From the NCBI GenBank assembly GCA_016432485.1, contig CP066691.1, positions 676,944 to 740,943 of the forward strand: DNA of 64,000 bases. The letters run 5' to 3'. Position 1 is the stretch's first letter. Each line of letters starts with the position of its first letter. Under the pieces are notes generated by a model. That model was not told where the DNA came from. It saw nothing but the letters and a program-made list of their open reading frames with translations, and did not search any database. Origin of the DNA: Candidatus Niyogibacteria bacterium. GTDB taxonomy: Bacteria > Patescibacteriota > Minisyncoccia > HO2-45-28. Position numbers and translations under genes: made by a program. Positions 6,964 to 58,017 of the stretch are shown here, piece after piece.

Positions 6964-9900
6964 ATGACCGACAAGGATTCGGAACATAAAAAATCATTTT
7001 CCGAAAGTGAGAAAGAAATTTTGGAATACTGGCGGAAAAATAAAATTTTTGAAGAAACCCTTGATAAAACCGAAAAGGGCAGGCCATTCGTGTTTTACGA
7101 GGGACCCCCTTACGCCAATGGCCGGCCGGGTATTCATCACGCGCTTGCCCGCGCCTTCAAAGACGCGATTTTGCGTTTTAAGACCATGCGGGGATTTTAT
7201 GTCCGCAGGAAAGCCGGATGGGATACTCACGGATTGCCGACTGAAATGGAAGTCGAGAAAAAACTCGGTTTGGCTTCCAAAAAAGATATAGAAGAAAAAG
7301 TCGGATTGGAAAAATTCGTTGAGGAAGCCAAAAAAAGCGTGTTCGGCTACAAAGAAGAATGGGAAAGACTGACCGACCGAATGGCTTACTGGCTTGATTT
7401 AAAAAATCCGTACGTGACTATGACCAATGGCTATATTGAGTCGCTCTGGTCGGTTTTTTCCAAGATCGCGGAAAACGGATATTTGTATAAGGACTACAAG
7501 GTTTTGCCGTGGTGTCCGCGATGCGGAACCTCGCTTTCGTCGCATGAACTCGCGCAGGGTTATAAAAAGGTAAAAGACGAATCAGTGTATGTTAAATTTC
7601 CCCTCAAACAACCTAAAAGCTATTTATTGGTTTGGACGACGACTCCCTGGACTTTGCCGGGCAACATTGCTTTGGCGGTCAATCCGAAAATCGGCTACGC
7701 GACGGTTGAAAAAAACGGCGAGCGGCTGATTTTGGCTAAAAGCCGGCTTGAAGTTCTTGAAGAAGATTATAAAGAAATAAACGAACAAAAAGGCAAAGAT
7801 CTGATCGGTCTGGAATATGAGCCGCTTTATCCAATATCTAACATTAAACATTCAACATCCGATTATAAGATAGTAGAGTCGGATTTCGTAACTGCCGAAG
7901 ACGGCACCGGCATTTTGCATGTAGCTCCGGCATTCGGCAGAGAGGACCAGGAAATAGGCAAAAAAGAAAAATTGCCAACTCCGATCACGGTGGACGAAGA
8001 GGGGAAATTGAAAGCGCCCGGGTACGCTTGGGACGGCAGATATTTCAAAGACGCCAATCCGCTTATTATTGAAGATTTAAAAAACCGGCAGCTTCTTTTT
8101 AAGACCGAACTTTACGAGCACGACTATCCGTTTTGCTGGCGTTGTCAGTCGCCTCTTATTTATTTCGCGAAGAATTCGTGGTTTTTAAAAACAACGGCGG
8201 TTAAAAATCAAATGATCGCCGAAAATAAAAAAATCGGCTGGCATCCGGAGTTTATTCGCGACGGGCGATTCGGCGAGTGGCTTTCCGAAAATGTTGATTG
8301 GGCGATTTCGCGCGAGCGTTACTGGGGGACTCCCTTGCCGATATGGCAATGCAACGCGTCCGGATGCGGGCATCAGGAAATAATCGGATCGCTTGAAGAA
8401 CTGGATAAGTTCGGGACAAAAAGAACTACGCGAGTTTTTATTATGCGTCACGGCGAGGCGGATCATAATGTTAACGGCTATGTGGGGCCGGTTATAAACG
8501 GCTCCGGCCTTACCGCAAAAGGCAGAAAACAGGTTGAAAAAGAAGTCAAAAAATTGGTCAAAGAAAAAATAGACATTATAATTTCTTCCCCGTTAACTCG
8601 CGCAAAACAAACCGCAGAAATTGTGTCTAAAACATTGGGAGCAAAAATAGAGGTAAACGAAAATATTTATGATTATAACTGGGGCAAACTTCAAGGAAAA
8701 ACGGTTGCGGAAGGGAACAAATTATTTCCGCTTGAAAGGAGATTTAAAGAATCTCCGCCGGGGGGAGAGAGCATACCGGATGTTCGAGCGAGAATGATGA
8801 TGGAGTTAAGGAAAGTTGTCAAAAAGCACGGCGGCAAAAATATTTTAATTATCAGCCACGGTGATCCGATATGGATTTTGAACGCGGCGCTTGAAGGGGC
8901 TGAAGAAAAAGATTATCCGCGATTATGGTATCCGAAAACAGGCGAAGCAAAAGAACTGAAGCTTCATAATTGGCCGTATAACCGAGCCGGAGAGCTGGAT
9001 TTGCACCGGCCTTATATTGATTTGATTGATTTGGTTTGTGCCAAATGCGGAGGCGAAATGAAGCGCGTGAAAGAAGTCGCTGATGTGTGGTTTGATTCGG
9101 GCGCCGTGCCGTTTGCCCAGGACAACTTTTTATTCGGCGCGAAAGCGAAAAGGCCCAGTCAATACCCCGCCGACTATATTGCCGAGGGAGTTGATCAAAC
9201 CAGGGGCTGGTTTTATACGCTGCTTGCCGTTTCGTCTCTATTGAAATTGCCGGCGCCTTATAAAAACGTTCTGGTCTTGGGATTGGTTCTTGATGAAAAA
9301 GGCGAAAAAATGTCCAAGTCGCGAGGTAACGCGGCTGAACCGCTGACGCTTTTTGAAAAATACGGGGCGGATGCCGTCAGATGGTATTTTTACACCGTTA
9401 ATCAGCCGTGGGACGAAAAACTTTTTAAAGAATCGGACATCGCGGAGGCCTCGCGAAGATTCCTGAATATTTTTTGGAACTCGTTTGTGTATTGGAGGAC
9501 TTATAAAGACAAGGGGAGTGTCCTGAAAAAAAAGCCGAGGCTTCTTATAAATAAATGGCTGGACATCAGATTAAACCAGGTTGGATACGACGCGACTGAA
9601 GCGCTTGAAAAATTTGACATTGTTCGCGCCGCGCGGATGATTGAAAACTTCGTGGCTGAAGATTTGTCGCGCTGGTATATCAGGCGGATAAGAGACGCCA
9701 TCAGATTCGGCTCAAAGCCCGAGAAAAAAGAGATAAGCGATATTTTTGGCCTTGCTTTGCGCGAGGTTTCAAAATTAGCGGCTCCTTTTATTCCCTTTTT
9801 GACAGACAGGATGTTTTTAGAAGTTATGAAAAACGGCAGTATTCATTTGGAAAAATGGACTAAATTCAAAAAACCGTCAGTATCCGAAAAAAAACTGGTT

Positions 9901-23182: not shown

Positions 23183-26164
23183 ATGCCTGATTACGATTTC
23201 AATAAAATAGAAAAGAAGTGGTCGGAAAAGTGGCTTAAGGATAAAACTTACGAGCCCCTCGACTTCGCTCGGGGTAAACCGGATTTAGACAAGGCCAAAA
23301 AGCCCTTCTACAACCTGATGATGTTTCCGTATCCTTCGGCCGAGGGGCTTCATGTGGGCAATATGTACGCGTTTACCGGCGCGGATATTTATGGCCGGAA
23401 AAAAAGAATGGAGGGCAAGGATGTTTTTGAGCCAATCGGCCTTGACGGTTTCGGGATTCATTCGGAAAATTACGCCTTAAAAATCGGCAAACACCCCAAA
23501 AAACTGGCGCAAGAGACAGAAAAAAGATTTTACGAGCAGTTGAAAATGATTGGCAACGGATTTTCTTGGGATGAACGGCTTGAGACATACGACCCCGAAT
23601 ATTACAAATGGACCCAGTGGATTTTTGTTCAGATGTTTAAGCGGGGGCTCGCCTATCGCAAAAAAGCCAGCGTTAATTGGTGCGCGCAATGTTTAACGGT
23701 TTTAGCCGATGAACAGGTGCTTGCGGGCGAGTGCGAAAGGTGCGGGACAAAAGTAATTAAAAAAGAACTTGAGCAATGGTTTTTTAAAATTACGGATTAC
23801 GCCGAGCGGCTTTTGAATGATATTGAAAAAATAGATTGGTCCAAACGAATTAAGATTGCCCAGAAAAATTGGATTGGGAAGTCAGAAGGAGCGTTAATAA
23901 AATTTCCGCTAAAAGCTAAGAGCTTACAGCTAAAAGTTGAAACAGAGGTTTTTACGACGAGGCCGGATACTTTATTTGGAGCAACATACCTTGTGTTAAG
24001 CCCGGAACATCCGTGGCTTACACAAGAAATCCTAAATTCTAAATCCGAAATCCTAAACAAATCCGAAATCCGAAATTATATAGAAAAATCCAAGGCAAAA
24101 ACCGAAGAAGAAAGAATTGCCGAAAGGGGCGACTCGCCTTCGCATAAAGCTTCGGCGGAGCAAGGAAAAACGGGAGTAGAATTGAAAGGAATTAAGGCAA
24201 TAAATCCGGCAACGAAAGAAGAAATACCAATATGGATTGCAGACTATGTTTTGGCGGGCTATGGCACTGGCGCGATTATGGCAGTTCCGGCGCATGACCA
24301 GCGCGATTTTGAGTTTGCACAGAAATTCGGGCTAGAAGTTAGGGAAGTTATTCGGCCGGTCTACGGGGAGCCACACGAAGGCGCGGAGTTTAGAAGGACT
24401 GTTACGGCTATAGTCCAAAGAAAAAGCGATGGTAAGTTTTTAGTCGTGAAGTGGAATAAATTTAATTGGGTGTCTTTGCCTATAGGCGGAATTGACGAAG
24501 GGGAGACGGCAGAAGAAACAGCGGTTCGCGAAGTATTTGAAGAAACTGGGCACAGAGTAAGACCGGTAAAAAAATTAGGCGGTGAGGTTACAATGCATTT
24601 TTTTGCTGAGAACAAAAATGTATGGAGACATAGATTGGATCAGCCTGTACTGCTTGAGTTGGTTGACGAAAACCAGACGGAGCGAAGTATTGAAGAAAAG
24701 GAGAAGTTGGAGCCAGTATGGATGAGCGGAGAAGAACTTATAAGATCAATAACCCATGAATACAATGTTATTGGCGTAAAGCGTTTTCTGGGTTTTGAGC
24801 TGGCGTATCAAGGACGGGGGGAATTGGTTAATTCCGGCGTTTTTGATGGAATGGATTCAGAGAAAGCAAAGCGGGAGATTACTAAATTTGTTGGCGGGGA
24901 AATAAAAAGTCAATATCATCTTCGCGATTGGCTTATATCCCGCCAGCGTTACTGGGGGCCTCCAATCCCGATGATTTTTTGCCCCGCCTGCGCCAACTCG
25001 GCCTTCGTAGCTACTTCGGCGAAGGAGGCGGCTTCGGCGGGCAAGAAAAATGCCGGTTGGCAACCCGTGCCGGAAAAAGACCTGCCTGTTTTACTGCCGG
25101 ACATAAAGAATTTTCGTCCGACAGGAACGGATAAATCTCCGCTGGCGACAGTTGAAGAATTCGTAAAAGCGAAATGCCCGAAATGCGGCGGGGAAGCACG
25201 AAGGGAAACGGATGTTTCAGACACTTTTTTGGATTCGGCCTGGTATTTTTTCAGATATATTGACCACGAAAATAAGCAAGAAGCTTTTAGCCGGAAGCTC
25301 GCGAAGCGCTGGCTTCCCGTGGATATGTATATCGGAGGCGCCGAGCACGCCGTTTTGCATCTTTTATACACAAGATTTTTAACCAAAGTTTTTTATGATT
25401 GGGGTTTGATTGATTTTGACGAGCCATTCAAAAAGTTCCGCGCGCATGGACTTTTAATAAAAGACGGCGCGAAAATGTCCAAGTCAAAAGGCAATGTGGT
25501 GAATCCCGACGATTATATAAATAAATTCGGCGCGGATACTCTTAGAATGTATTTGATGTTTTTGGGGCCGTTTGACGAGGGCGGAGATTTTAGAGATGAA
25601 AGCATCGCGGGCGCTGTCAGGTTTTTGAATAGGGTCTGGAAGTTGAAAGAAAAAATCACCCCGTCATCCGACGGGGTGCCCGGTCGAATGACCGGGCAAA
25701 ATCCCAAATTAGAAATCATACTGAATCAATCAATTAAAAAAATCGGAGATGATATTGAGAAACTTCATTACAATACCGCGATTTCCCAATTGATGATTTT
25801 ATTAAGCTCGTTTGAAAACGGATGCGACGAAAAAAGTTTTAAAATATTTTTGAAACTTCTCGCGCCCTTCGCTCCGTTTCTTGTAGAAGAGCTCTGGCAT
25901 AAATTGGGGGAGTCAGAAAGTATTCATACATCAAAATGGCCCGAATACGACGAATCAAAAATTAAAGAGGAGATGAAAACGATAATTGTGCAGATCAACG
26001 GAAAAGTCCGCGAAAAATTTGAAATATCATCTAAGGACTCGGATGAAGAAATTAAAATACAAACGTTGAATCTCCCGAAGATAAAAGAATTCCTTGGCGG
26101 AAAAAATCCTCAAAAGATAATCGTGGCCAGAAATCGGTTGGTAAATATAGTGCTTGCAAAATAG
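23183..26164 (+). CDS. leuS: leucyl-tRNA synthetase with an inserted Nudix hydrolase domain
   Basis: HIGH-like FPYPSAEGLHVGN, KMSKSKGN, CP1 editing domain; insert 24340-24780 with canonical Nudix box GGIDEGETAEETAVREVFEETGH. Confidence 0.9.
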   Translation: MPDYDFNKIEKKWSEKWLKDKTYEPLDFARGKPDLDKAKKPFYNLMMFPYPSAEGLHVGNMYAFTGADIYGRKKRMEGKDVFEPIGLDGFGIHSENYALKIGKHPKKLAQETEKRFYEQLKMIGNGFSWDERLETYDPEYYKWTQWIFVQMFKRGLAYRKKASVNWCAQCLTVLADEQVLAGECERCGTKVIKKELEQWFFKITDYAERLLNDIEKIDWSKRIKIAQKNWIGKSEGALIKFPLKAKSLQLKVETEVFTTRPDTLFGATYLVLSPEHPWLTQEILNSKSEILNKSEIRNYIEKSKAKTEEERIAERGDSPSHKASAEQGKTGVELKGIKAINPATKEEIPIWIADYVLAGYGTGAIMAVPAHDQRDFEFAQKFGLEVREVIRPVYGEPHEGAEFRRTVTAIVQRKSDGKFLVVKWNKFNWVSLPIGGIDEGETAEETAVREVFEETGHRVRPVKKLGGEVTMHFFAENKNVWRHRLDQPVLLELVDENQTERSIEEKEKLEPVWMSGEELIRSITHEYNVIGVKRFLGFELAYQGRGELVNSGVFDGMDSEKAKREITKFVGGEIKSQYHLRDWLISRQRYWGPPIPMIFCPACANSAFVATSAKEAASAGKKNAGWQPVPEKDLPVLLPDIKNFRPTGTDKSPLATVEEFVKAKCPKCGGEARRETDVSDTFLDSAWYFFRYIDHENKQEAFSRKLAKRWLPVDMYIGGAEHAVLHLLYTRFLTKVFYDWGLIDFDEPFKKFRAHGLLIKDGAKMSKSKGNVVNPDDYINKFGADTLRMYLMFLGPFDEGGDFRDESIAGAVRFLNRVWKLKEKITPSSDGVPGRMTGQNPKLEIILNQSIKKIGDDIEKLHYNTAISQLMILLSSFENGCDEKSFKIFLKLLAPFAPFLVEELWHKLGESESIHTSKWPEYDESKIKEEMKTIIVQINGKVREKFEISSKDSDEEIKIQTLNLPKIKEFLGGKNPQKIIVARNRLVNIVLAK

Positions 26165-43642: not shown

Positions 43643-43730
43643 TGGTGCCGCGGGTGGGAGTTGAACCCACATGACCTTGCGGTCGCAGGATTTTGAGTCC
43701 TGTGCGTCTGCCAGTTCCGCCACCGCGGCA
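43643..43730 (-). tRNA. tRNA-Leu (anticodon CAA), CCA encoded
   Basis: Minus strand TGCCGCGGTGGCGGAACTGGCAGACGCACAGGACTCAAAATCCTG + long variable arm + GGGTTCAACTCCCACCCGCGGCACCA. Confidence 0.8.
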
Positions 43731-57747: not shown

Positions 57748-57816
57748 ACTAATTATAAAATTATAATCACTTTTTGATTCTTCGCGCAAAGCGAAGAATT
57801 TTTTTTGTCGAGATTT

Positions 57817-57888
57817 TGGGCACACCAGGACTCGAACCTGGAACCACCAAGGTATAAGCTTGGCGCTCTGCCATTGAGCTATGTGCCC
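57817..57888 (-). tRNA. tRNA with anticodon UAU (AUA-reading tRNA-Ile)
   Basis: Minus strand GGGCACATAGCTCAATGGCAGAGCG-CCAAG-CTTATAC-CTTGG-TGGTT-CCAGGTTCGAGTCCTGG-TGTGCCCA; cloverleaf fits, loop CU-UAU-AC. Confidence 0.7.
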
Positions 57889-58017
57889 ATCGCGATGAAG
57901 TCAAGGCGGGCGCATCATATTTTATATTATCGTTTCCTTGACTAATTTACAAGCCAATATATGCTGAAAATGGGTTGAAATTTGAAATAAAACATCCGTT
58001 TTAAGGAGGAGGCAACG

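Follow-up and report, generated by a model that had tools for sequence, protein, structure and literature searches.

A predicted Nudix hydrolase module nested in the editing domain of leucyl-tRNA synthetase from Niyogibacteria and related lineages

Bacterial aminoacyl-tRNA synthetases (aaRSs) are highly conserved and are usually seen as architecturally static enzymes. Here we describe the leucyl-tRNA synthetase (LeuRS) gene, leuS, found in a 64,000-nucleotide stretch of the genome of a Candidatus Niyogibacteria bacterium (contig CP066691.1, positions 676,944 to 740,943 of the forward strand; this whole stretch is hereafter the window, and positions are given in its coordinates unless a contig is named). 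It is very probable, judging from sequence comparisons, that this gene encodes a functional LeuRS with a real and catalytically competent Nudix hydrolase nested in its CP1 editing domain, and that it belongs to a large family of such proteins that has not been described. The features of the gene are as follows.

23183..26164, + strand: leuS open reading frame (ORF; QQG46084.1), uninterrupted, 993 aa, a bacterial-type LeuRS with an embedded Nudix module
23351..23362, + strand: HIGH-type signature, here HVGN, aa 57-60 (motif scan)
23954..23971, + strand: TTRPDT, threonine-rich CP1 editing-site motif, aa 258-263 (motif scan; within the PF13603 match)
24263..24298, + strand: CP1 editing motif GTGAIMAVPAHD with its conserved Asp, aa 361-372 (motif scan)
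24359..24796, + strand: embedded Nudix hydrolase module, aa ~393-538 (V393-F538), ~146 aa, equal to one whole free-standing Nudix protein
24485..24553, + strand: Nudix box GGIDEGETAEETAVREVFEETGH, aa 435-457 (motif scan)
24797..24922, + strand: C-terminal remainder of CP1, aa 539-580, ELAYQGRGELVNSGVFDGMDSEKAKREITKFVGG..., which aligns to Thermus thermophilus LeuRS from residue 374 onward and to insert-free relatives
25472..25486, + strand: KMSKS catalytic loop, exact, aa 764-768 (motif scan)

The host protein is, from its sequence, a bacterial-type LeuRS by every criterion that can be tested. The ORF scores 873.7 bits against the NCBIfam model TIGR00396 (cutoff 548.4), in a match that is broken into four stretches because of the insert, and it matches T. 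thermophilus LeuRS (PDB 1h3n) with an E value of 4e-200. An identical protein is held at NCBI under QQG46084.1, where it is named 'MAG: class I tRNA ligase family protein [Candidatus Niyogibacteria bacterium]' (MAG, metagenome-assembled genome). Its domain order is that of the canonical bacterial enzymes (T. thermophilus 1H3N/2BYT and E. coli 4AQ7/4ARC), comprising a HIGH-type signature, KMSKS, ZN1, a CP1 domain with its T-rich and GTG..AHD motifs, an anticodon-binding domain and a C-terminal domain, and alignment places the elements of CP1 in the same order as in T. thermophilus LeuRS. The Pfam editing-domain family PF13603 matches aa 228-396 (E 4.7e-55), and GTGAIMAVPAHD, located ~20 aa upstream of the insertion point, is identical to the corresponding T. 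thermophilus motif. Unlike the canonical enzymes, the window LeuRS carries a 146-aa enzyme domain in CP1, lacks the leucine-specific domain, reads HVGN at the HIGH position and has an extra 21-aa insertion. The first reading of this DNA, made from the letters alone (the original prediction), had listed HIGH, KMSKS and CP1 motifs; the latter two were recovered, and the HIGH position reads HVGN, with Asn in place of the last His. HVGN is the consensus of this LeuRS clade, and H57 and G59 are invariant among 65 aligned relatives. T. thermophilus residues ~578-635, which precede KMSKS directly, have no counterpart in the window protein (query 759-762). This leucine-specific domain is also missing from insert-free relatives, a clade-wide lack, and the suggestion that the Nudix module had taken its place was mistaken, given that the site of the domain lies just before KMSKS. 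The 64-kb window holds no second leuS. The 21-codon insertion, at 24983-25046 within ...CANSAFVATSAKEAASAGKKNAGW... (aa ~601-621), follows the CP1 exit and precedes the zinc-binding CPKC region; the sister contig L081 does not have it, and its predicted structure falls below a predicted local distance difference test score (pLDDT) of 50 at aa 615-619. The minus strand at 43643-43729 encodes tRNA-Leu(CAA), one of the tRNAs cognate to the window LeuRS.

A hidden Markov model search of the translated ORF with PF00293 returned a significant match at aa 404-519 (E 1.1e-13, 51.7 bits in context), and the excised module alone scored higher (E 4e-15, 56.4 bits; gathering score 21.1 in both cases). A genuine Nudix domain is therefore present in frame inside an uninterrupted LeuRS ORF, as had been predicted. 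The box GGIDEGETAEETAVREVFEETGH keeps G435, E441, R449, E450, E453, E454 and G456, departs from GX5EX7REUXEEXGU only in its final U, which is His, and is the sole Nudix box that a motif scan finds in the window. Structure prediction of the module alone gave high confidence (pLDDT 92.6; predicted template modelling score, pTM, 0.87), and the model has the alpha/beta/alpha Nudix fold. When the full protein was predicted (pLDDT 87.9, pTM 0.80), the Nudix block reached pLDDT 90-96, flanked by short connectors with values of ~90 on the N-terminal side and 73-81 on the C-terminal side, and this model agrees with a clean domain-in-domain arrangement.

The position of the module differs from the one first proposed, which placed it after the editing domain. 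The Pfam editing-domain model reached only position 146 of 185 ahead of the insert, and the final ~40 CP1 residues (ELAYQGRGELVNSGVFDGMDSEKAKREITKF...) come after it. Against T. thermophilus LeuRS, query residues 3-397 align with residues 3-368 and query residues 539-759 with residues 374-578. By this alignment, the module interrupts CP1 between T. thermophilus residues 368 and 374, where the final quarter of the editing domain has a surface loop. The junctions read ...IRP/VYGEP... and ...RFLGF/ELAY..., the slash marking the boundary. In the translated sequence, the residues assigned to the synthetic site, the editing site and the Nudix box are all intact.

The 120 best LeuRS homologs, which belong to Paceibacteria/Parcubacteria, were sorted by length and by content between the anchors HDxRD and RDW..SRQRYWG. 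The same CP1 loop holds a Nudix domain in 79 of them, an unrelated insert in five and no insert in 36; a check of homologs from the candidate phyla radiation (CPR, or Patescibacteria) had been proposed with the original prediction, and the insertion is thus found at the same loop in 79 of 120. Named Nudix-bearing members come from Niyogibacteria, Liptonbacteria, Sungbacteria, Jorgensenbacteria, Paceibacterota and 'Parcubacteria group' MAGs, and the fusion was seen in at least 79 independent 90%-identity clusters drawn from NCBI, JGI, ENA and Logan assemblies. When the module alone was searched with HMMER against 1.84 billion 50%-identity representatives, 910 matches were obtained at E <=1e-3; the best 150 of these comprise 89 LeuRS-embedded domains, 36 short free-standing proteins and 25 other proteins. 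Most embedded Nudix domains are only 38-42% identical to the window module, yet they keep the catalytic signature. A set of 158 Nudix boxes in 145 LeuRS proteins shows 99-100% conservation of the three metal-binding glutamates, with the Arg present in 86% and the first Glu in 85%; 132 of the boxes are strictly canonical. At the sequence level, this shows the predicted catalytic residues to be held under long-term conservation. Because these residues are conserved, we infer that the module has a divalent-cation-dependent pyrophosphohydrolase activity.

One subclade carries an altered box, GGIEKGQT...[A/T/M]EIREETG (P0036, P0045, P0070, P0092, P0093, P0100, P0103, P0108, P0117 and P0121), in which the first Glu is changed to Gln and the Arg to Ala, Thr or Met, with the three metal-binding Glu retained. 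In triple-Nudix LeuRS proteins, one copy is of this type. The substitutions suggest a changed specificity or a regulatory copy.

The nearest relatives of the window module are not themselves part of a synthetase. They are free-standing Nudix proteins of 156-179 aa (P0001-P0013) that align over their full length at 57-63% identity, and the only relative closer than this set is the insert of one distant LeuRS, P0107. We examined the genomic context of eight free-standing genes and found all eight downstream of leuS on the same strand (L084-L094), with a gap of 9-97 bp in seven of the eight contigs (L084-L093). In the remaining contig, L094, a HicB/HicA toxin-antitoxin pair (537-983) stands between the end of leuS and the nudix gene, and the upstream fragment ends ...KPALLIE*, like the LeuRS of L084. 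Contigs with the leuS-nudix pair carry the archaeal markers TFIIB and ribosomal protein S8e, one is annotated 'uncultured archaeon', and on their sequence content they are DPANN-like. The LeuRS proteins of L084 (3382-5991) and L087 (3301-5958) are chimeric, with a TIGR00396 body and a C-terminal third that follows TIGR00395/NF008957 to the end of the profile, whereas that of L091 is fully archaeal-type (TIGR00395, 895 bits) and has the C-terminal peptide KPALLIE as well. One of these contigs, L091, also holds a 691-aa RNase HII gene (7662-9737) with Intein_splicing and LAGLIDADG Pfam matches.

The DPANN-like proteins and the window module belong to the same subfamily, share VFGEPHEGAE and HFFAENKNVWRHR.DQPVLL, and have the same LeuRS partnership; they differ in that the former are encoded by separate genes next to a LeuRS with an uninterrupted CP1 loop and the latter is an insertion. 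The fused form also occurs in a MAG labelled Pacearchaeota (L002), whose 977-aa LeuRS has a Nudix domain at aa 396-510. These comparisons show a Nudix clade that appears specifically LeuRS-associated, either in cis or as the next gene, and fusion in CPR bacteria together with adjacency in DPANN would constitute a Rosetta-stone signal in favour of LeuRS being functionally linked to a specific Nudix clade. Weighing against this interpretation, part of the fusion and adjacency signal could reflect shared ancestry of a single arrangement. In a midpoint-rooted neighbour-joining tree whose sampling is biased toward the query, the free-standing clade falls inside the embedded ones. An origin of the free-standing proteins as escapees from the fusion, marked by a leftover CP1 flank, was considered and dropped: a position-specific scoring matrix for the flank FEFAKKF.LPI..VI.P scored their N-terminal tails no better than shuffles (p 0.13-0.6).

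Close relatives of the window LeuRS differ in whether they have the module. P0023 (787 aa; L081 190-2553) has no Nudix domain and a backbone 93% identical to that of the window LeuRS over conserved columns. It also lacks ~33 aa of the flanking CP1 segment (...AY.G.G.LVNSG.F.G...); P0023 and five relatives (P0031, P0026, P0034, P0043 and P0055), a clade of Niyogibacteria-like LeuRS proteins, have the short linker S[ND]APL[AV]D there instead, and this C-terminal CP1 segment seems dispensable. Contig L081 is syntenic with the window, and the 545 bp at window positions 24330-24875 correspond to 38 bp in L081. Because close relatives differ in having it, the module is, on this comparative evidence, accessory and exchangeable, and the comparisons show that it would be dispensable for LeuRS function in those relatives.

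The two leuS alleles further differ in a tract that extends beyond the cassette:

24143..24863, + strand: tract with a separate history, codons ~321-560, comprising the Nudix module and ~70 upstream CP1 codons (defined by synonymous divergence, dS, and identity; boundaries approximate)

Identity between the window LeuRS and P0023 is 96% outside aa 301-630 and 81% inside. Synonymous divergence between the window and L081 ranges from 0 to 0.24 over codons 41-320 and 641-993 and is saturated over codons 321-400, with pooled values of 0.099 outside the tract and 0.89 inside. Because dS is high to saturated inside and low outside, the ~0.7-kb tract that holds the cassette has, as far as sequence divergence can tell, a history unlike that of the rest of leuS. 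A replacement of one allele by another, with homologous recombination in the conserved CP1 flanks, is consistent with these data and would be the simplest cause. Other members of the family show similarly discordant relationships between insert and backbone. The insert of P0107 is 73% identical to the window Nudix domain with a backbone identity of only 52%, and most other fusions show the reverse, with inserts at ~40% and backbones at 63-70%. The window lineage may have imported a tract with the Nudix module, or the sister may have imported one with the deletion, and nearest neighbours taken region by region favour neither direction: within the inner region, the nearest neighbour of P0023 is P0031 (86%), and P0022 has no close donor but a P0107-like Nudix domain (73%). 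These sister genomes, one bearing the module and the other lacking it, are set apart by a putative recombination tract and provide a natural experiment.

The CP1 loop is one of several places in LeuRS where additional modules are found. Pfam matches in longer relatives fall at the following sites.

CP1 start: alpha/beta-hydrolase (P0038), ASCH (P0099), Ham1 (P0116) and an additional Nudix domain (P0143, P0152)
After CP1: HAD (P0144)
Between the catalytic core and the anticodon-binding domain: Ham1 (P0195)

P0143, P0151 and P0158 each carry two or three Nudix boxes in one LeuRS. The unrelated inserts that occupy the same CP1 loop as the window module are of two kinds, ~88 aa and ~120-134 aa long (P0056/P0101; P0119/P0131/P0136 with GFWNEY), and in P0131, the one of these five homologs that was scanned, no Pfam match covers the insert. 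These distributions are evidence that LeuRS loops may be hot spots for the acquisition of hydrolase modules in ultra-small symbionts.

The module was also compared with Nudix enzymes of known function. Its best profile and structural matches in this group are Rv2985/MutT1, yeast DDP1, human DIPP1, T. thermophilus Ndx1, the Aquifex Ap4A hydrolase 3I7U, DR1025 and RppH; Rv2985/MutT1 acts on diadenosine polyphosphates and 8-oxo-GTP, and Ndx1 acts on Ap6A. Identity to the Nudix ApnA/polyphosphate hydrolases and RppH is only 20-26%, and these enzymes are stand-alone or have other fusion partners, in contrast to a module nested in a synthetase. Assignment to a named Nudix enzyme was rejected, as none of the curated NCBIfam equivalogs (RppH, MutT, NudE, NudC, NudB, YtkD, MutT1 and Deinococcus Nudix) reached its cutoff and the best scores were 37.2 bits (cutoff 200), 31.2 (475) and 30.3 (241). 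Subfamily motifs provide a further guide: ADP-ribose pyrophosphatases have a Pro ~15-16 residues after the box, NADH pyrophosphatases have SQPWPFPxS and CoA hydrolases a NuCoA motif upstream of the box, and ApnA hydrolases reportedly have an aromatic residue ~16-18 positions after it. The ADP-ribose, NADH and CoA motifs are absent from aa 386-545, where position +15 is His472 and neither SQPWPFPxS nor an LLTxR..FPGG-like motif occurs.

We propose that the protein is bifunctional, acting as a normal LeuRS and carrying a Nudix domain that would act independently on a nucleoside-5'-polyphosphate-type substrate. The likeliest substrates would be dinucleoside polyphosphates such as Ap4A, which aaRSs produce from aminoacyl-adenylate and ATP, with related (damaged) NTPs as the other possibility; hydrolysis would yield AMP and ATP for reuse in organisms dependent on nucleotide salvage, and fusion in CPR bacteria, like gene pairing in DPANN, would keep the hydrolase co-expressed with the synthetase and beside it. 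The suggestion of Ap4A or NDP-X turnover made in the original prediction is compatible, by analogy, with the nearest structural neighbours (ApnA, DIPP and 8-oxo-GTP hydrolases) and with the DPANN leuS-nudix pair. We hold the combination of an Ap4A/NpnN-type substrate and a functional coupling to LeuRS to be possible and put it forward tentatively. Taken whole, from nested Nudix domain and bifunctional enzyme to Ap4A-type substrate and coupling, this is our best explanation, and we judge its chances to fall slightly short of even.

The main alternative, to which we give a substantial though minority share of our belief, is that the permissive CP1 loop serves as a 'safe harbour' for a passenger or house-cleaning module that has no mechanistic link to leucylation and contributes to general nucleotide sanitation or salvage, small hydrolases becoming fixed in reduced genomes since the gene that houses them is indispensable and always expressed. 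The presence of unrelated hydrolase families at several LeuRS sites and of unrelated non-Nudix inserts at this very loop in five homologs would be expected under such a scenario, as would the variable presence of the module among close relatives, one of which, the sister, tolerates a deletion there; MutT1-type 8-oxo-GTPases are also among the top structural neighbours. A counterargument comes from the DPANN-like contigs, where the same Nudix clade lies behind leuS in 8 of 8 cases, including one with an archaeal-type LeuRS. A random module, once separated, would not be expected to keep its link to leuS unless adjacency was merely inherited, and the nearest relatives in the Nudix clade are mostly LeuRS-embedded as opposed to being spread over many hosts.

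Improbable, in our estimation, is an RNA-directed Nudix activity, in which RppH- or decapping-like action would remove a 5'-triphosphate, NAD cap or Np4A cap from RNA that LeuRS brings close, such as tRNA-Leu precursors or mRNAs, and would tie the synthetase to the processing of RNA 5' ends. The host protein binds RNA, an RNA-binding ASCH domain is present in one variant, the structural neighbours of the module include RppH and Nudix effectors of the decapping type, and NCBIfam RNA pyrophosphohydrolase models give weak sub-threshold matches (E 2.5e-7 to 6e-5). The RppH-model scores, however, are far under their cutoffs (30 vs 241 bits), mature tRNAs have 5'-monophosphates generated by RNase P, and these computations indicate no RNA-binding surface on the module.

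There is still less to recommend a non-catalytic, structural role in tRNA binding or in positioning the editing domain, for example as compensation for the missing leucine-specific domain, or an additional editing activity, and we regard these as very improbable. Location of the insert inside the editing domain would fit such roles, and the altered-box subclade (GX5Q...[A/T/M]E..EE) may point to catalysis that has been relaxed or altered in certain lineages. Set against this are the canonical box of the window protein and the near-invariance of the metal-binding glutamates across the family, and insert-free relatives also lack the leucine-specific domain, so that there is nothing to compensate for. 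The bond that Nudix enzymes cleave is a pyrophosphate bond and not an aminoacyl ester; this chemistry does not match the deacylation of mischarged tRNA and renders the 'second editing activity' considered in the original prediction chemically unlikely. Finally, the origin of the sequence in a MAG is the sole reason to consider an artefact, either a chimeric or wrongly joined assembly or a selfish element that, like an intein, is excised as the protein matures. This reading has a negligible chance of explaining the data and was rejected, given a continuous reading frame, an insert GC content like that of the rest of leuS (0.43-0.47), recurrence of the same junctions in those at least 79 independent clusters across different assemblers and repositories, and neither a Hint, intein or homing-endonuclease family in the ORF (Pfam, E <=0.01) nor the Cys, Ser or Thr that inteins have at their junctions.

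Returning to a bifunctional LeuRS-Nudix protein, known systems offer partial precedents. NadM-Nudix (NMN adenylyltransferase/ADP-ribose pyrophosphatase) likewise joins a HIGH-superfamily adenylate-forming Rossmann enzyme to a Nudix domain on one polypeptide, and its Nudix domain is thought to trim the nucleotide product of the pathway; it differs in being a terminal fusion whose partner is no aaRS and whose Nudix domain is of the ADPR-type subfamily. In NF040702, a curated bacterial class Ia aaRS (IleRS) carries a second enzyme domain, which is a GNAT N-acetyltransferase and not a hydrolase. Eukaryotic aaRS accretions (GST, WHEP, EMAPII) also add domains to synthetases and are mostly terminal and non-enzymatic, unlike a hydrolase that is nested in the editing domain and variable between close relatives. 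To our knowledge, catalytic domains nested in an editing domain are not in the textbook picture of these enzymes. The jumbo-phage paper PMC7824862 mentions fusions of this nucleotidyltransferase-Nudix kind only.

The original prediction considered the architecture undescribed, and this stands in so far as full-text literature searches, with most subscription journals outside their coverage, turned up no account of either a LeuRS-Nudix fusion or a leuS-nudix gene pair; the sequences themselves, however, have been public since 2016 (OGZ00309.1, OHA00132.1), under the names 'Leucine--tRNA ligase' (UniRef), 'hypothetical protein' and 'class I tRNA ligase family protein'. The architecture is thus widespread and apparently undescribed. 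The insert also matters for annotation, as it leads PGAP to label an essential LeuRS no more precisely than 'class I tRNA ligase family protein'. What emerges is a large natural family, comprising dozens of 50%-identity clusters, of LeuRS proteins with an apparently active pyrophosphohydrolase in CP1, which aaRS specialists would find surprising; its predicted function would tie a synthetase to the turnover of nucleotides or alarmones, a connection that can be tested directly. If the substrate were Ap4A or a related nucleotide, these proteins would have a built-in means of disposing of or recycling a synthetase by-product in organisms unable to make nucleotides, and the long-debated relevance of aaRS-made Ap4A would become testable with one recombinant protein.

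A broader and more speculative view, which we consider doubtful in its entirety, is that LeuRS in Paceibacteria and DPANN serves as a dedicated platform coupling amino-acid activation to the turnover of nucleotides or alarmones. A Nudix clade specific to LeuRS, accompanied in certain lineages by Ham1, HAD, alpha/beta-hydrolase and extra Nudix domains, would clear Ap4A-type by-products or aberrant NTPs where ATP is consumed, and the cassette, nested in the editing domain or encoded as a downstream gene, would circulate by recombination between leuS alleles and across the CPR-DPANN boundary.

Elsewhere in the window, three further observations were made. A GC-rich stretch at 27750-29110, with values of up to 0.63 against ~0.45 nearby, contains only overlapping arginine-rich ORFs in several frames and has no Rfam match at E <=0.1; the sister contig L081, although syntenic, has nothing that corresponds to nucleotides 28337-29110. 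The minus strand at 57816-57889 encodes a tRNA-Ile whose anticodon is TAT (UAU); most bacteria read AUA by means of a lysidine-modified CAU tRNA, and this gene may indicate TilS-independent AUA decoding. A tmRNA gene (165 bits) is located on the minus strand at 2256-2606 and encodes the tag peptide ANYQPALAYA.

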